Part shown: one piece after another, positions 3,687-11,249 of the stretch
How positions within the stretch are numbered: position 1 is the stretch's first letter
Layout: every line of letters begins with the position of its first letter
Virus record (IMG/VR): IMGVR_UViG_2859793810_000003
Length of the DNA: 11,249 bases
Strand: one strand, 5' to 3'
Source: a virus
Lineage: Duplodnaviria > Heunggongvirae > Uroviricota > Caudoviricetes
Program-made: the position numbers and the translations under genes
The notes under the pieces: generated by a model
What the model was told of the DNA's origin: nothing
Databases searched by the model: none
The model's input: the letters and a program-made list of their open reading frames with translations, nothing else

Positions 3687-3887
3687 ATGGCACGCAACGC
3701 AAAATATTACAATCATGATAATTCGACCGTTCTTGCCCACACGCACGAGCGGTATTCTCACGCATTTAAGTCAGACTGGTACCAGCATCCCTCATGCACT
3801 GAAGAACAGGCCGAATGGCTTATTCAGTGTTACCGCAGGCGCGGATGCGAGGTTAAAAAAGCCCTTAGCCTCGACTACCGTCACTAG
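3687..3887 (+). CDS. Hypothetical small phage protein (66 aa, Cys/His-containing)
   Basis: ORF with Shine-Dalgarno GGAGA 8 nt upstream of the ATG; not recognised. Confidence 0.4.
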   Translation: MARNAKYYNHDNSTVLAHTHERYSHAFKSDWYQHPSCTEEQAEWLIQCYRRRGCEVKKALSLDYRH

Positions 3888-3966: not shown

Positions 3967-5016
3967 GTGCGGGTATTACTTCGACCTGTTCTGGTTCCGG
4001 AACTCGGGCTGGTGGTCCTTAAGCCCGGTCGTGAATCCATGCCGGTATTCCACAATACCCGGGTACTGGTGGAGCCGGAACCGAAAAGCATGCGTAATCT
4101 GCCGTCCGGGGTCGTTCCTGCCGTTCGCCAGCCGCTAGTGGAAGACAAAACATTGCTGCCGTTTTTCAGTAACGCACGGGTGATTCGTGCTGCTGGTGGT
4201 GCTGGCGCATTGTCTGACTGGCTGTTGCGCCATATTAAATCCTGCCAGTGGCCACACGGCGATTATCATCACAGCGAAACCGTCATTCACCGTTATGGTA
4301 CCGGCGCAATGGTATTGTGCTGGCACTGCGACAACCAGCTGCGTGACCAGACATCCGAATCACTCGAGCAACTTGCTCATCAAAACCTGTCAGCATGGAT
4401 GATTGACGTCATCGGTCACGCAATAAGCGGTACGCAGGAGCGTGAATTATCTCTGGCTGAATTATCCTGGTGGGCGGTCCGCAATCAGGTGGCGGACGCG
4501 CTACCGGAAGCGGTATTACGTCGTTCGCTGGGGTTGCGTGCGGAAAAAATCCGCTCAATGTACCGTGAAAGCGACATCGTGCCGGGAGAGCAGACCGCCA
4601 CCAGCATACTGAAGCAGCGCACAAAAAATCTTGCGCCGCTGCCTCACGCCCACCAGCAACAGAACCCACAACAGGAAAAGACGGTGGTCAGCATTGCCGT
4701 TGATCCTGAGTCTCCGGAATCTTTCATGAAACGACCTAAACGTCGCCGCTGGGTTAACGAGAAATACAAACGCTGGGTGAAGACACAGCCGTGTGCGTGT
4801 TGTGGTAAGCCAGCCGACGATCCCCATCACCTGATTGGTCATGGTCAGGGCGGAATGGGGACCAAATCTCACGATATTTTCACGCTACCGCTGTGTCGGG
4901 AGCATCACAACGAGCTTCATGCGGATCCTCTGGCGTTCGAAGAAAAGCATGGTTCTCAGGTTGATTTAATTTTTCGTTTTCTTGATCACGCCTTTGCAAC
5001 TGGCGTGCTTGGGTAA
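3967..5016 (+). CDS. ydfU: YdfU-like DUF968 prophage protein with C-terminal Cys/His (HNH-like) motif
   Basis: 349-aa ORF, GTG start preceded by GGAGG; N-terminus MRVLLRPVLVPELGLVVLKPG and overall sequence recalled as K-12 YdfU; C-terminus contains CACCGKPADDPHHLIGHG...CREHHNELH. Confidence 0.75.
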   Translation: MRVLLRPVLVPELGLVVLKPGRESMPVFHNTRVLVEPEPKSMRNLPSGVVPAVRQPLVEDKTLLPFFSNARVIRAAGGAGALSDWLLRHIKSCQWPHGDYHHSETVIHRYGTGAMVLCWHCDNQLRDQTSESLEQLAHQNLSAWMIDVIGHAISGTQERELSLAELSWWAVRNQVADALPEAVLRRSLGLRAEKIRSMYRESDIVPGEQTATSILKQRTKNLAPLPHAHQQQNPQQEKTVVSIAVDPESPESFMKRPKRRRWVNEKYKRWVKTQPCACCGKPADDPHHLIGHGQGGMGTKSHDIFTLPLCREHHNELHADPLAFEEKHGSQVDLIFRFLDHAFATGVLG

Positions 5017-5028
5017 AAGAGGTGACTG

Positions 5029-5385
5029 ATGCTCATAGATTTGGTTTTACCTTACCCGCCGACGGTGAACACTTACTGGCGACGCCGTGGCAGCACATAT
5101 TTTATCTCGGAGGAGGGAAAGCGTTATCGCCGGGCTGTGGCGCTTATTGTTCGCCAGCAGCGGCTGAAATTAAGCCTGTCCGGAAGGCTGGCGATAAAGG
5201 TGATTGCAGAGCCACCGGATAAGCGTCGTCGCGACCTGGACAATATCCTGAAAGCACCGCTGGATGCGCTGACGCATGCGGGAGTGTTAATGGACGATGA
5301 GCAGTTTGATGAAATCAATATCGTTCGTGGTCAGCCAGTATCTGGTGGACGTCTGGGGGTGAAGATTTACCCCATAATGCATTAA
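5029..5385 (+). CDS. rusA: RusA-family Holliday junction resolvase
   Basis: 118-aa ORF with Shine-Dalgarno AAGAGGTGA; motif PDKRRRDLDNILKAPLDALTHAGVLMDDEQ matches the RusA catalytic region (K-12 RusA has PDRRRRDLDN...DALT). Confidence 0.85.
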   Translation: MLIDLVLPYPPTVNTYWRRRGSTYFISEEGKRYRRAVALIVRQQRLKLSLSGRLAIKVIAEPPDKRRRDLDNILKAPLDALTHAGVLMDDEQFDEINIVRGQPVSGGRLGVKIYPIMH

Positions 5386-5399
5386 GAGCAGGTCAAAAA

Positions 5400-6221
5400 A
5401 TGAAACTGGAAGATTTACCGAAATACTACTCCCCAAAATCCCCTGGCCTGACCGATGCATCGGCCTCAACGTCAAAAGATGCGCTGAGTATCACTGATGT
5501 GATGGCCGCGCAGGGCATGACACAGAATCGGGCTGAGATGGGTTTTTCTGCGTTCCTGGGGAAAATGGGCATCAGTATGAATGACAGGGCGCGGGCAACA
5601 GAATTACTGGCAGATTATGCACTCAGTCGGTGCGATCGTGTGGCGGCGTTGAGAAAACTTCCGGCAGAAATAAAACCGGTAGTGATGCGCATTATGGCTT
5701 CGTACGCTTTTGAGGATTATGCCCGCAGCGCAGCGAGTAAAAAGCAGTGCCCTTGTTGCTATGGGGAAAAATTTATTGAAAGCATAGTTTTTACAAACAA
5801 GATCCAGTATCCGGATGGTAAGCCGCCGGTATGGGCAAAGTGTACGAAAGGTGTGTATCCGTTTTACTGGGAAGAATGGAAAAAAGTCAGGGAGGTGGTA
5901 AAAGTTGCCTGTCCGGAGTGTGGCGGAAAGGGTGAGGTTTCCACCGCCTGTAAGGATTGCCGTGGGCGTGGTGTCGCCATTCATCGTGAAGAGTCGGTAA
6001 AACGTGGTATGCCTGTTATCAGAGACTGCCAGCGTTGTGGTGGTCGTGGCTATGAAAGACTACCATCAACGGAGGCATTTAATGCTATATGCGAGGTGAC
6101 AAACCAGATAACACGCGCGTCATGGGAAAAAACAGTTAAGAAATTTTATGATGCGCTGGTGACCCGGTTTGATATTGAAGAAGCATGGGCTGAGCGGCAG
6201 TTAAAAAAGGTAACTAGGTAA
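5400..6221 (+). CDS. Late-gene antiterminator Q-like protein (QuuQ-like), carrying four CxxCxGxG zinc-finger repeats
   Basis: 273-aa ORF positioned between rusA and a PR'/tR'-like module, as for Q in lambdoid phages; N-terminus resembles my recollection of K-12 QuuQ; four CxxCxGxx motifs (CPCCYGEK, CPECGGKG, CKDCRGRG, CQRCGGRG) seen in the translation. Confidence 0.7.
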   Translation: MKLEDLPKYYSPKSPGLTDASASTSKDALSITDVMAAQGMTQNRAEMGFSAFLGKMGISMNDRARATELLADYALSRCDRVAALRKLPAEIKPVVMRIMASYAFEDYARSAASKKQCPCCYGEKFIESIVFTNKIQYPDGKPPVWAKCTKGVYPFYWEEWKKVREVVKVACPECGGKGEVSTACKDCRGRGVAIHREESVKRGMPVIRDCQRCGGRGYERLPSTEAFNAICEVTNQITRASWEKTVKKFYDALVTRFDIEEAWAERQLKKVTR

Positions 6222-6226
6222 CAAGG

Positions 6227-6254
6227 TTGATTTTTCCGGAATCTGTGGTAAATT
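6227..6254 (+). promoter_or_regulatory. PR'-like late promoter (-35 TTGATT, 16-bp spacer, -10 TAAATT) with a lambda-like initial transcribed region
   Basis: TTGATT...TAAATTcgtcataatgatgggcg resembles lambda PR' (TTGACT...TAAATTtgactcaacgatgggtt) as recalled; located immediately after the Q-like gene. Confidence 0.45.
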
Positions 6255-6303
6255 CGTCATAATGATGGGCGTTTTATGCCTGGCGTTAGAAGAGTTTCTA
6301 CAA

Positions 6304-6327
6304 CCCGCCGCTGAGCGGGTTTTTTTA
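6304..6327 (+). terminator. tR'-like rho-independent terminator
   Basis: Hairpin cccgc-cgctga-gcggg followed by seven T; lies about 50 bp downstream of the PR'-like promoter. Confidence 0.6.
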
Positions 6328-6365
6328 TTGCGAAATTAATTACGGACCGTTATTATTCTGCTCCC

Positions 6366-6441
6366 GGCCCTTTAGCTCAGTGGTGAGAGCGAGCGACTCA
6401 TAATCGCCAGGTCGCTGGTTCAAATCCAGCAAGGGCCACCA
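6366..6441 (+). tRNA. ileZ: tRNA-Ile2 (anticodon CAU, lysidine-type), phage-borne ileZ-like
   Basis: 76-nt cloverleaf folded by hand: acceptor GGCCCTT/AAGGGCC, D-stem GCTC/GAGC, anticodon loop CTCATAA (CAT at 6399-6401), T-loop TTCAAAT, 3' CCA encoded. Sequence much closer to E. coli ileX than to Met tRNAs as I recall them. Confidence 0.85.
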
Positions 6442-6542: not shown

Positions 6543-6619
6543 GCGTTGTTAGCTCAGCCGGACAGAGCAATTGCCTTCTAAGCAATCGGTCACTGGTTCG
6601 AATCCAGTACAGCGCGCCA
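6543..6619 (+). tRNA. tRNA-Arg (anticodon UCU, reads AGA)
   Basis: 77-nt cloverleaf folded by hand: acceptor GCGTTGT/ACAGCGC, anticodon stem ATTGC/GCAAT, loop CTTCTAA (TCT at 6577-6579), T-loop TTCGAAT, CCA encoded; similar to argU. Confidence 0.85.
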
Positions 6620-6729
6620 TATTCATTCTTCCAGATTCCTTCCGGCAGAGCCTTATACTGAAATATACCTGGCTCAGGATATTGTTGAAAATATTATATA
6701 TTTGTCAAAAATAAAAGTTCTGTTAAGTA

Positions 6730-7083
6730 TTGATTGAGTATTTGTTATACGGTCTAATGGTTTTTTCAGCATTAAGTATTTATCATTCATATGGTGTGGG
6801 TAGAGTGAATATTGATGAGGCGTCGGGGTGTTTCATCCTTAGGCAGCGTATTGATATAGTCAATGCAGCACGAGCAAAGGCCTTCAGCCGTTTGACAGTT
6901 TTGTTCTGTACTCCTGATCGTCTTTCGGGAAGAGACGTTATTATTCTGAATAGTGATGCTATACAGAGGGTTTGCGATGAGTTCATGGTTGCTAATTCAG
7001 AATTATTTGCTCTTGTTCAGGAGTACAACAGAATAGCCAGGACCTGTGGTATGGATGAACTTCGGATTACTCATCTGGGGTAG
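6730..7083 (+). CDS. Hypothetical protein in cargo region (117 aa from a TTG start; first in-frame ATG at 6757)
   Basis: Only the open frame supports this; no convincing Shine-Dalgarno; visibly AT-rich; contains several AGA/AGG/ATA codons. Not recognised. Confidence 0.3.
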   Translation: MIEYLLYGLMVFSALSIYHSYGVGRVNIDEASGCFILRQRIDIVNAARAKAFSRLTVLFCTPDRLSGRDVIILNSDAIQRVCDEFMVANSELFALVQEYNRIARTCGMDELRITHLG

Positions 7084-7475
7084 ATACATATCTGGATTAT
7101 CACCTGTTACGGTAAAAAGTGATTGCTTACTGTTTTTGTTAATGGCATTGCAGCAGCCGGATAATGTCAGTGCCGGCTGACGGTGTGCTGGTGGCGGGTG
7201 TGGTGGTTGTTGCTTTCCCGTTGCTGAAAAAGAAAACGCCAGACTGTTAGCCGGGTATCAGTTAGCGGGAGAAATTTTTAAATACTTCACAATTCAGGCG
7301 GTTGACTGTTGTCTGGTTTGCGGGGAGTTTGTTAAAAGAAACTGGCATGGTGAATCCCCCTGTGCGGAGGGGCAATCAGCGAGTAGGTATATGGGATAAT
7401 CGCGGATTCAGGTGCTGGTACTGAATTCACCGGGAGGCACCCGGCACCATGGAATGGCACATAGCGCCACTCTCC

Positions 7476-7510
7476 AGCCCCTCTCCGGAGGGGCTGTTTA
7501 TATTGATTTT
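7476..7510 (+). terminator. Rho-independent terminator (perfect 8-bp stem)
   Basis: agcccctc-tccg-gaggggct followed by GTTTATATTGATTTT. Confidence 0.55.
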
Positions 7511-7530
7511 GTCAGATGTGAGTAAACTCC

Positions 7531-7866
7531 TTATGGACTTTGTTGTTTTAGTCCATAAGGGCATATTTGCAGAGTGCAACGGTTATTAAAGCATTCATTC
7601 AATACGTTATCTGTATTTGTAGGGCATTCCTGGCTGTTTTTGATTAAATTCCAGAATGTTTTATTGAATGGTACTACGTTGTAAATGGTTACAGGTAGCA
7701 CTTTGTTATTGAGCATGATGCCTGTGTGAGTCAGTGTAAATATACTTTCAGGAGGTAAGAAAGCATCCGATTGATACCAGATTATTAATTTTATTTTACT
7801 CCATATGACTGAAAAAGATATTCCGCATGATGGCTGGATAACTGTATCAATCACAATCCACTTCAT
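7531..7866 (-). CDS. Hypothetical protein, opposite strand to the phage late operon (111 aa, Cys-containing C-terminus)
   Basis: ORF with good Shine-Dalgarno (AAGGAA, 5-nt spacer, ATG) on the minus strand; AT-rich; a perfect 11-bp inverted repeat (7529-7560) overlaps its stop codon. Not recognised. Confidence 0.45.
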
Positions 7867-8314: not shown

Positions 8315-8556
8315 TACTACGTCATCGTACTGGCCCGGCATTCCAGGCCATAAAAGACAGTCTGGCAGTGGGACTAAATGCACTGACGCTGACGGATATT
8401 ACCAAAAATGCAACGTATGGCGTTGAGATAGAAAGTCTGGTGCTGGAGATAAATGCACCGGCATCATCATAAAAAGTGAGCCAGTCAAATGGAAGGTATC
8501 GTTAAACTCACCGGTAGTGTCAGTGGGTCGTCTGAGACGCTTGCATGAGTTATCAG

Positions 8557-8588
8557 AGCCATCAGTAGTTAACTGGTGGCTTTTTTAT
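8557..8588 (+). terminator. Putative rho-independent terminator upstream of the holin gene
   Basis: agccatcag-tagttaa-ctggtggct (one mismatch) followed by TTTTTTATTG. Confidence 0.45.
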
Positions 8589-8621
8589 TGTTGTCAGCTT
8601 CCGGATAACGGGAGACGGGGT

Positions 8622-8782
8622 ATGGACCAGATGGAAAAAATCACAACAGGTGTGTCATACACCACGTCAGCGGTGGGAACGGGCTACTGGTTCCTGCAGT
8701 TGCTGGACAGGGTTTCCCCGTCTCAGTGGGCGGCAATAGGCGTGCTGGGGAGTCTGCTGTTTGGGCTGCTGACATATCTGAC
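8622..8782 (+). pseudogene. Phage-21-type pinholin (S21 family) gene, 3'-truncated by IS insertion; dual-start motif M-D-Q-M
   Basis: [54 protein letters not shown] resembles S21 pinholin ([45 protein letters not shown]... as recalled); Shine-Dalgarno GGAGA upstream; the reading frame runs into the IS600-like right end at 8783 and terminates after 6 IS-derived codons. Confidence 0.8.
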
Positions 8783-9731
8783 TGAGGTGTACTGGCAATA
8801 GCGGACACTACCATTTGTTCTTTTTTTAAGCAGCCATCTGATGATATTTTTCCCTGAAGGCTGCCGGGGAGATATTCCCCAGACGAGAGTGACGACGCTG
8901 ACGATTGTAGAAAATCTCAATGTATTCCCGTATTACTGAGATGGCTTCATCCCGGTTATTAAAACGATAGTGGCTCAGGCTCTCATTTTTCAGCGTTCCC
9001 CAGAAGCTTTCCATCGGAGCGTTGTCGTAACAGTTACCTTTACGCGACATTGATGTTTTCAGACCAGACTGCTCCTGTATGACCCGGTAATCGTATGCGC
9101 AGTACTGTGAACCTCGATCAGAGTGGTGGATTAGCCCGGCAGGTGGGCGCTGGCTCCTGAGCGCCATAAACAGGGCTTTACCTGTCAGCTCTTTTGTCAT
9201 GCGCTCTCCCATGGCGTAGCCGACAATTTCACACGTATAAACATCTTTGATGCCAGCGAGGTACAACCATCCCTCCTGTGTGGCAACATACGTCAGGTCC
9301 GCCACCCAGACCTGATTTGGTGCTGTAGGAGCGAACGTCTGGTTCAGCAGATTTGGCGCAACTGGCAGATTGTGGTTCGGGTTCGTAGTCGCTCTGAACT
9401 TGCGTTTCTGCTTACAGCGTAGCCTCAGCTCCTTACGAAGACGTGCCAGTCGGTCACGACCAACGATGATGCCATTCTCTGCCAGCTCCGTCTGGAGCCG
9501 CCGGGTTCCATATGTTTCGCGAGTGCGGATATGTGCCACCTTAATCTCCGGTTTTAGCCGCTCATCACTTTGTTTTCTGTCTGAGGGTTCATGCTGTACC
9601 CAGTTGTAATAACCGCTCCTGGATACACCAAATACCTGACACATCGCTTCAATGGGAAATTGTTGTCGCCATTGTTCGATTAACGCGTATTTTTCAGCGA
9701 CTCCTGTGCAAAATACGCTGTTGCTTTTTTT
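8783..9731 (-). mobile_element. IS3-family insertion sequence (IS600-like), second copy, inverted relative to the first; left portion (IRL and most of orfA) missing, truncated by IS1
   Basis: Right end identical to the copy at 1-862 up to the CA terminus (reverse complement at 8783); the OrfAB reading frame continues upstream of the orfB ATG (…KYALIEQWRQQFPIEAMCQVF) and is cut at 9731 directly at an A-rich slippery-like heptamer. Confidence 0.85.
8826..9644 (-). CDS. IS3-family transposase OrfB (IS600-like), copy 2
   Basis: 272-aa ORF, one amino-acid different from the ORF at 1-819. Confidence 0.85.
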   Translation of the reverse strand: MCQVFGVSRSGYYNWVQHEPSDRKQSDERLKPEIKVAHIRTRETYGTRRLQTELAENGIIVGRDRLARLRKELRLRCKQKRKFRATTNPNHNLPVAPNLLNQTFAPTAPNQVWVADLTYVATQEGWLYLAGIKDVYTCEIVGYAMGERMTKELTGKALFMALRSQRPPAGLIHHSDRGSQYCAYDYRVIQEQSGLKTSMSRKGNCYDNAPMESFWGTLKNESLSHYRFNNRDEAISVIREYIEIFYNRQRRHSRLGNISPAAFREKYHQMAA

Positions 9732-9746
9732 GGTAATGACTCCAAC

Positions 9747-10250
9747 TTACTGATAGTGTTTTATGTTCAGATAATGCCCGATGACCTTGTCATGCAGCTC
9801 CACCGATTTTGAGAACGACAGTGACTTCCGTACCAGCCTTGCCAGATGTTGTCTCAGATTCAGATTATGTCGCTCAATGCGCTGAGTGTAACGCTTGCTG
9901 ATAACGTGCAGCTTTCCCTTCAGGCGTGATTCATACAGCGGACAGCCATCCGTCATCCATACCACGACCTCAAAGGCCGACAGCAGGCTCAGAAGACGCT
10001 CCAGTGTGGCCAGAGTGCGTTCACCGAAGACGTGCGCCACAACCGTCCTCCGTATCCTGTCATACGCGTAAAACAGCCAGCGCTGACGTGATTTAGCACC
10101 GACGTAGCCCCAATGTTCGTCCATTTCAGCGCAGACAATCACATCACTGCCCGGTTGTATGCGCGAGGTTACCGACTGCGGCCTGAGTTTTTTAAGTGAC
10201 GTAAAACCGTGTTGAGGCCAACGCCCATAATGCGTGCACTGGCGCGACAT
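9747..10250 (-). CDS. insB: IS1 InsB (catalytic part of the InsAB' transposase, made by -1 frameshift)
   Basis: 167-aa protein ...[38 protein letters not shown]... recognised as IS1 InsB; overlaps insA in the -1 frame. Confidence 0.95.
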
Positions 10251-10499: not shown

Positions 10500-11249
10500 C
10501 TGGTTGTAGACTTGTCTCAGCATATAAGTTGCTGGAATGATTACGGCGGCTGGTACGACACTGATCATATAAACCTGGTACAAGGCTCAGCTTTCGCAGG
10601 CTCCCTACAGTCATATAAAGGATCGCTGTACTGGAATAATGTGACCTACCCCTTCCCGTTGACGACAAATACCAACGTATTGGATATTGGTGATAAGACA
10701 CCGATGCCATTACCGTTAAAACTCTATATTACCCCAGTTGGGGCGGCCGGTGGAGTTGTCATAAAAGCGGGGGAAGTCATTGCCCGTATTCATATGTATA
10801 AAATTGCAACATTAGGAAGCGGAAATCCGCGTAATTTTACGTGGAATATTATTTCAAATAACAGTGTTGTTATGCCAACAGGCGGCTGCACCGTTGATAG
10901 TCGTAATGTCACCGTGGATCTCCCGGACTTTCCTGGAAGCGCAGAAATACCCCTTGGCGTATATTGCTCAAGCGAACAAAAGCTCTCATTTTATCTTTCG
11001 GGTGCCACCACTGACAGTAGCCGACAAGTGTTTGCTAACACAGCACCTGATGCAACAAAAGCATCGGGAGTGGGTGTCACTCTAATGCGTAATGGAAAAA
11101 TACTGGCTACGGGAGAAAATGTCTCCCTGGGGACAGTAAATAAAAGCAAAGTACCTCTGGGTTTAAGCGCAACCTATGGACAAACAGGAAACAAGGTTTC
11201 AGCCGGAACCGTCCAGTCAGTCATTGGTGTCACTTTTATCTATGAATAA
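10500..11249 (+). pseudogene. FimH-like fimbrial tip adhesin gene (chaperone-usher family), 5'-truncated by IS1; 3' end and stop codon intact at window end
   Basis: The frame is open from the IS1 junction; [17 protein letters not shown]...[24 protein letters not shown]...[12 protein letters not shown] aligns by eye with E. coli FimH (LVVDLSTQIFCHNDYPE...VVPTGGCDVSARDVTVTLPDYPGS...VQSIIGVTFVYQ); the signal peptide and start of the lectin domain are missing. Confidence 0.8.

Follow-up and report, generated by a model that had tools for sequence, protein, structure and literature searches.

A 92-codon gene of a family predicted to form helical hairpins, located downstream of the Q antiterminator gene and two tRNA genes in a degraded lambdoid prophage

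The 11,249-nucleotide stretch of DNA analysed here (the window) was found to include an open reading frame (ORF) of 117 codons on the + strand, extending from a TTG at position 6730 to 7083, that very likely contains a shorter gene, located at 6805–7083 and preceded by an untranslated leader. The coding sequence (CDS; 6805–7083, + strand) begins with GTG, ends with TAG and encodes a 92 amino acid (aa) protein of the phrog_2873 family, for which a small helical hairpin is predicted, and the two tRNA genes upstream appear to be positional neighbours of the gene and not one half of a matched pair. An earlier note, made from the sequence alone, had placed the limits of the gene at 6730 and 7083. 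These limits are revised here, as the first 25 codons evolve as non-coding sequence and the homologues start at 6805.

The ORF matched the phrog_2873 HMM over the full length of the profile (E value 2.2e-69, 231 bits; profile positions 1–108 of 108, ORF residues 10–117), and a distant match to the helical core was obtained with phrog_4827 (E value 4e-5). Searches of protein collections revealed, besides close copies, full-length homologues with 56–63% aa identity encoded by E. coli prophages, as well as full-length homologues with 20–42% identity in Citrobacter, Salmonella, Serratia, Morganella and Xenorhabdus. The homologues, which represent six genera when Escherichia is included, are 91–110 aa as called and align end to end, with the frame, the length and the motifs kept down to ~20% identity. 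All of those in the collections are labelled hypothetical and have no Pfam domain. A homology search and conservation of the frame in relatives had been proposed in the earlier note, which regarded the coding status as uncertain, and both point to a coding sequence.

The pattern of substitution is that of a protein-coding gene. Over the 92 codons, dN/dS was 0.22–0.31 in three E. coli pairs (from the window and two diverged alleles), and the changes at first, second and third codon positions (19/21/42, 24/23/43 and 24/20/39) revealed an excess at the third position. The other reading frames contain 4–15 stops each, and the frame was intact in 82 of 82 close copies. Among 30 haplotypes, 6805–7083 had 2.9 variable sites per 100 nt, ~3-fold lower than the 8–11 found in the flanks, and the polymorphism in the CDS within the close allele group consisted of 3 synonymous and 6 non-synonymous changes, which are too few to show selection. 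Judged from these sequence comparisons, the ORF is a genuine gene under purifying selection.

Two further features overlapping the CDS were considered and rejected. An antisense ORF of 67 aa (6783–6986, − strand) had no Pfam or PHROG match, and its frame is broken in the diverged E. coli allele in locus L003, where the reverse frames have at least 4 stops each; one reverse frame has a low dN/dS because wobble positions are shared, a known mirror effect. A terminator-like hairpin inside the CDS (6919–6937) is absent from L003 and was taken as chance.

The 92 aa form was modelled by AF2 from a 21-sequence alignment with a pLDDT of 87.8, as two helices (residues 3–33 and 50–81) with a 16-residue loop and a short C-terminal tail, and the protein models as a soluble antiparallel two-helix hairpin. 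No segment is as hydrophobic as a transmembrane helix would be, and the pI is 5.7; the family as a whole is small (~91–110 aa), soluble and mildly acidic to neutral. The conserved positions include R23, P37, N64, E66, V71, Y74, N75 and A78. Neither the window protein nor the family alignment matched a Pfam family, NCBIfam gave no match, and a sequence search of the PDB found nothing significant (best E value 0.055). The structures most like the model were generic antiparallel helical hairpins (ROP-like or designed proteins, prefoldin beta, HR1 and efflux-pump adaptor hairpins; 4–23% identity, Foldseek E values >0.07), and these matches are functionally uninformative because any long helical hairpin gives them.

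In PADLOC, the window protein itself was unmatched. A few members of the Serratia type gave marginal matches to HEC-06/07 (E values 8e-4 to 0.03), which in HEC-07 involve a coiled-coil stretch (301–370 of 553) and were judged to be compositional. The anti-adapters IraP and IraM, the latter encoded by a neighbouring gene, were also rejected as relatives (hhalign probability below 1%).

The genetic context of the gene is a degraded, IS-riddled lambdoid prophage. A DUF968 gene (3967–5016, + strand) and a RusA gene (5029–5385, + strand) precede the gene for the 273 aa Q antiterminator (5400–6221, + strand), which was recognised by a match to Pfam PF03589 (Antiterm; E value 7e-55) and is labelled 'antitermination protein' by RefSeq in a locus with 99.3% identity (L001). 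A putative late promoter pR' (TTGATT, 16 nt, TG-n-TAAATT; 6227–6254, + strand) was read from the sequence, scoring 8 of 12 and thus under the reporting threshold of the scan; it was assigned by its position right after Q and by comparison with the −10 hexamer of lambda pR'. At the position of tR' lies an intrinsic terminator-like hairpin with a T-run (6302–6327, + strand; hairpin 6302–6321), which has a 7-bp stem with 5 GC pairs followed by TTTTTATT. Between this and the first tRNA gene, a promoter-like site (TTGCGA-17-TATTAT; 6328–6356, + strand), recognised as a 9 of 12 consensus match only, suggests that the tRNAs may be expressed independently of Q in a lysogen.

The first tRNA gene (6366–6441, + strand; ARAGORN, Rfam 72.5 bits, RefSeq tRNA-Ile) has a CAT anticodon and is of the Ile2 type, which reads ATA, and the second (6543–6619, + strand; ARAGORN, Rfam 68 bits, RefSeq tRNA-Arg) is a tRNA-Arg (TCT), which reads AGA and, by wobble, AGG. 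The 117-codon frame starts 110 nt past the tRNA-Arg gene, directly downstream of rare-codon tRNAs as the earlier note had described, and a terminator scan found none between the tRNAs and the gene.

Downstream of the gene, a 43 aa small membrane protein is encoded at 7118–7249 (+ strand; RefSeq 'DUF3927 family protein'), but this gene is inactivated in the window, where a G-to-T change has turned codon 8 into a stop (TAA, 7139–7141) when compared with the intact gene in E. coli MS6198 and phage mEp460. It is followed by a prophage sRNA of the STnc100 family (7316–7505, + strand; Rfam RF02076, 124 bits versus a gathering threshold of 47) with its own terminator at 7475–7496, and by iraM (7531–7866, − strand; RefSeq WP_000871291.1, phrog_4407 E value 3e-73), which encodes the anti-adapter protein IraM. 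A DUF1737 gene lies between iraM and the gene for a P21-type class II holin (8517–8775, + strand; frame in the window 8517–8801; Pfam PF04971 profile positions 1–54 of 64). The 3' end of the holin gene has been lost, with an IS3-family arm present from 8776, and as the IS insertion at 8775/8776 truncates the holin, it has destroyed the lysis cassette that the prophage carried. The GC content is ~0.50 in the core genes, 0.38–0.44 over the ORF and 0.30–0.35 around iraM (0.35 in the gene itself).

The gene was found after Q and before the holin gene in each prophage context read. In E. coli MS6198 and phage mEp460, the order is Q, tRNAs, the gene and DUF3927. In STEC prophages, it is Q, a methyltransferase gene, tRNAs, a TolA-like gene, an AraC-like gene, the gene, five tandem STnc100 copies, nanS-p and the holin gene, whereas the E. 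coli P0019-type arrangement is Q, methyltransferase, AraC-like, the gene, TerB-like, DUF3927 and holin, and that in ETEC4079 is Q, methyltransferase, the gene and holin. Outside E. coli, Q is followed by further genes, the gene, TerB-like, DUF3927 and holin genes in Citrobacter, by tRNAs, the gene, two small genes and a lysozyme gene in Serratia, and by a methyltransferase gene, the gene and a holin gene in Morganella. The families of Q (PF03589 or PF06530) and of the holins (P21-type, holin_8 and holin_2) vary across the four genera. The constant feature in these lambdoid prophages of Enterobacterales is the position between Q and the holin gene, and no particular partner gene is shared.

In several E. 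coli prophages, mostly from STEC, the homologue lies 22–130 nt downstream of a gene for a 241 aa AraC-family (HTH_18) regulator (L003, coordinates 164–889; L092, coordinates 5142–5870; L005, coordinates 5164–5889). The regulator and the homologue possibly form an operon. No such regulator gene is present in the window. One related STEC prophage carries six STnc100 copies (L005, coordinates 4575–4787 and 6547–7526), of which five are in tandem directly downstream of the homologue; STnc100 was related to PasD sRNAs in a 2026 preprint.

The position of the gene recalls that of stx in Stx phages, in which the order is Q, tRNA (ileZ/argN/argO) and stx. The two share a slot that follows Q, the late promoter and terminator and rare-codon tRNAs and precedes the lysis genes, and the tRNA segment in Stx phage records is 84–87% identical to that in the window. 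In a related STEC prophage, the homologue is also in the same region as nanS-p. However, the cargo here is a 92 aa helical protein and not a toxin, and among relatives the codons used in the cargo do not vary with the identity of the tRNAs. As virulence cargo (stx, nanS-p and AraC-like regulators) is carried in this slot ahead of the lysis genes, a protein found there across genera is a candidate for a phage accessory function.

The earlier note had drawn attention to the pattern of AT-rich cargo beside rare-codon tRNAs in Stx phages and had suggested that the tRNAs and the cargo are functionally linked. Its observation that the ORF uses the codons read by the adjacent tRNAs is correct, as the 117-codon frame includes 3 AGA, 3 AGG and 3 ATA codons, with one AGA (6802) outside the 92 aa CDS. 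In the CDS, 8 of 93 codons (8.6%) are AGA, AGG or ATA versus 38 of 1396 (2.7%) in a neighbour set made up of eight ORFs on the + strand that were treated as genes and include two from IS elements; this ~3-fold difference (Fisher p = 0.006) involves only 8 codons. AGA and AGG together (AGR) account for 5 of the 10 Arg codons, and the neighbour set has 23 of 119 (p = 0.04), whereas ATA (3 of 9 Ile codons versus 15 of 65) and AGA alone, the cognate of the UCU anticodon, are not significantly enriched. Moreover, the fractions observed (0.50 for AGR/Arg and 0.33 for ATA/Ile) match the 0.42 and 0.33 expected from the base composition of the ORF itself. The enrichment relative to neighbouring genes anticipated in the earlier note is modest and shows no excess over composition.

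The other genes of the region and the relatives of the gene also bear on this link. Core genes nearby use the same codons, with AGR accounting for 6 of 21 in Q. The ORF at 7531–7866, which had been put forward for the same count, proved to be the known gene iraM on the opposite strand; ATA makes up 6 of its 13 Ile codons, but it has no AGA or AGG (and one Arg only). E. coli homologues with no tRNA gene between Q and the gene have 5 AGR and ATA codons, and the tRNA-less Morganella homologue has 7. Where tRNA genes are present upstream of other family members, in Citrobacter (L086, coordinates 3691–3766), on a plasmid (L089, coordinates 5347–5419), in Serratia (L094, coordinates 5492–5722) and in Morganella (L098, coordinates 5753–5827), their identities are Thr-UGU, CAT anticodon plus Gly-UCC, and Asn-GUU, and the homologues behind Thr-UGU (Citrobacter), Gly-UCC (Serratia) and Asn-GUU (Morganella) contain no ACA, GGA and AAC codons, respectively. 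The differing identities indicate that the spot after Q collects tRNAs generally.

It is therefore unlikely that the tRNA-Ile2 and tRNA-Arg(UCU) genes are carried specifically to translate the cargo (and iraM) as a co-adapted unit. The density of rare codons relative to neighbouring genes, the location of the tRNA genes 110–185 nt upstream on the same strand and the presence of the same tRNA types ahead of stx would all fit such a unit. However, as the rare codons are at the level set by composition, are present in homologues that have no tRNAs and do not match the identity of the neighbouring tRNAs, the link is positional and not codon-specific. The data are a better fit to an AT-rich mobile gene with no adaptation to host codon usage than to a matched pair of tRNAs and cargo. 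The presence of tRNA genes directly downstream of Q is general in lambdoid phages, for example SfI, Sf6, ST64T and P21 (PMC3636060), and the adjacency is thus best read as that of two accessory elements in one insertion-tolerant spot, which we infer to be on one transcript. Of the earlier interpretation, the presence of codons read by the two tRNAs and the AT-rich cargo position, which is that of stx in Stx phages, are supported, and the proposed functional link comes down to a coincidence of position, of a kind already known. That the idea of tRNAs serving the cargo fails against relatives calls for caution in similar inferences from single genomes.

All of the comparative evidence agrees in placing the real start of the gene at the GTG at 6805, which is codon 26 of the 117-codon frame. 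The homologues begin within 0–3 residues of the position aligned to this codon. In an E. coli allele with ~63% protein identity (L092 and L099), the same GTG is preceded by AGGAG at a distance of 4 nt, and there is no in-frame ATG, GTG or TTG upstream of it. The first codon of RefSeq WP_001017777.1, a 92 aa hypothetical protein of E. coli ETEC4079 encoded by a P0019-type allele, also maps exactly to 6805. This protein shares ~63% aa identity (76% DNA identity) and both the GTG start and the stop, and its gene is in the orthologous position, after Q and a methyltransferase gene and before the holin gene, but it has a canonical AGGAG Shine–Dalgarno (SD) sequence, is annotated and has no tRNA genes upstream, whereas the window allele has GTGGG and is unannotated.

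The calculated energies of the anti-SD duplex were −0.9 kcal/mol for the TTG at 6730, −2.4 for the ATG at 6757 and −4.5 for the GTG at 6805 (GTGGG), the last being the best of the three but weak, as an energy of −4.0 or better is reached at 27% of random positions. The earlier note, which had considered only the TTG and the ATG, was right that these have essentially no SD sequence but missed the in-frame GTG. At the same site, the energies were −5.1 to −6.9 in orthologues and −2.8 in the L003 allele, which has effectively no SD.

The 185 nt between the tRNA-Arg gene and the GTG (6620–6804, + strand) would form an AT-rich untranslated leader, which holds the first 25 codons of the 117-codon ORF (6730–6804). 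In these 75 nt, the changes relative to L003 and L092 are spread evenly over the codon positions (11/10/12 and 12/10/12), and dN/dS was 0.6–1.0. The segment is as polymorphic as the spacer between the tRNA genes and the ORF (8–10 variable sites per 100 nt in the leader), with 5 of 6 changes non-synonymous, and when the full ORF was modelled with AF2, residues 1–23 had pLDDT values below 50 and were modelled as disorder. On these sequence criteria, the first 25 codons behave as a non-coding leader.

Translation of the gene as a 117 aa protein from the TTG at 6730, or as a 108 aa form from the ATG at 6757, is less likely still than co-adaptation with the tRNAs. No stop interrupts the frame after 6730 in either the window or L003, where a 3-nt indel preserves it, and the databases include entries of 108, 117 and 118 aa. 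The phrog_2873 family is itself a 108 aa model, which starts at the ATG at 6757, 16 codons upstream of the GTG, and in a few distant members the protein as called has 11 additional residues (MSIQYILRGYS), which are loosely like IEYLLYGL. However, the longer forms would have to be translated from the two poorest SD sites, L003 has AAT in place of the ATG, and L092 and L099 have no in-frame start upstream of the GTG. The even distribution of changes, the dN/dS values, the spacer-level polymorphism and the disorder predicted for the extension likewise argue against these forms, and most homologues and the RefSeq orthologue begin at the position of the GTG. The leader around the TTG includes an 11-nt stretch, ATTGATTGA, that together with flanking bases (window 6730–6745; L003, coordinates 905–925) is identical in the window and L003 alleles, which are otherwise ~72% identical. 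This part of the leader may have a regulatory role.

A match to the gene was found in 1,314 of 5,426 complete E. coli genomes (about a quarter), with the window-type allele in ~1,260, but the allele was without an annotated CDS in every RefSeq record inspected. The weak SD and atypical composition probably explain this annotation gap. The AraC-adjacent allele was found in 80 genomes, mostly of non-O157 STEC, with no O157 among the records listed. A pattern search of genome contigs based on the family alignment, using patterns that required an ATG-encoded Met, recovered 2 loci only. Among 50,697 sequenced phage records, the gene was present in only one, mEp460_ev081, indicating that any role in lytic growth is not central and that the gene is accessory. 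Literature searches on PatE/AraC-like regulators, STnc100, ileZ/argN/argO and DUF3927 found no mention of the gene.

The lack of annotation in an allele carried by so many genomes, the weak start signal, the absence of a Pfam or NCBIfam family and the mostly non-synonymous polymorphism within the lineage would fit a frame that is open by chance in AT-rich DNA, either intergenic or in the leader of the late transcript, but this is very improbable given the conservation of frame, length and motifs across genera to ~20% identity, the low dN/dS with its wobble-position excess, the stops in all other frames, the confident AF2 model and the orthologous alleles with canonical SDs and RefSeq annotation, and the 20–63% identities exclude an artefact of one recent DNA transfer. 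A gene that roughly one in four complete E. coli genomes carries is either missing from RefSeq or entered with three different wrong starts, and as its true limits can now be stated (GTG at 6805 to 7083, 92 aa), the annotation can be corrected.

For the transcription route, the oligomeric state and the cellular role of the protein, we infer the following. The gene would be the first protein-coding gene of a Q-dependent late transcript running from pR' past tR' (6302–6321) through the tRNAs and the gene and onward to the holin gene, with Q allowing transcription to pass tR' and the tRNAs into the gene. Alternatively, it could be reached by Q-independent read-through from the promoter-like site at 6328–6356. 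The GTG start and weak SD would make translation inefficient and its level low, and the protein may act in the cytoplasm through helix–helix contacts with proteins, as the modelled hairpin suggests, probably as a dimer or four-helix bundle. It would be an accessory factor, dispensable for lytic growth. The AGA, AGG and ATA codons would be those of an AT-rich, horizontally mobile gene that is not adapted to host codon usage, the co-transcribed tRNAs would help to decode rare codons in the window, and the tRNAs and the gene would be adjacent since the insertion-tolerant spot downstream of Q has taken up both. However, as the prophage is an IS-riddled remnant with a truncated holin, expression of the late operon may be defunct and the gene may be silent.

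Whether the 92 aa family is more than this is doubtful. It could be an unrecognised functional part of the late operon, encoded at its start, for example a cytoplasmic modulator of lysis timing or late expression or a late inhibitor of a host factor. If so, it would be a component whose position is conserved across genera despite differing types of Q and holin, and one that has been overlooked, with its commonest allele skipped by the NCBI pipeline in the records inspected. The feature is real but ordinary, namely a conserved hypothetical prophage gene with corrected limits.

A more distant member of the family, of 91 aa and with 34% identity, was found on plasmids with a Rep3 replicon (contigs L089–L091, coordinates 6001–6276). 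It is flanked on one side by a PapB-like regulator gene and a K88-like fimbrial operon and on the other by a gene for cation efflux, and a tRNA-Thr remnant is present upstream, like the tRNA-Thr in the Citrobacter prophage. The plasmid copy looks like a fragment of a prophage late region captured by a plasmid.

The prophage fragment in the window is bracketed by inverted, 100% identical copies of the IS3-family element (1–869 and 8776–9644), which encodes a 272 aa rve transposase. Alongside are a second IS3-family element, an IS1 transposase gene and a fimH ORF (1134–2338, 9747–10250 and 10512–11249). The Pfam match of the fimH product misses ~34 positions at the start of the mannose-binding domain of FimH, and this gene is apparently truncated at its N-terminal end. 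The arrangement is IS-riddled and Shigella-like, and the inverted IS3 pair could invert the whole 7.9-kb segment between them.
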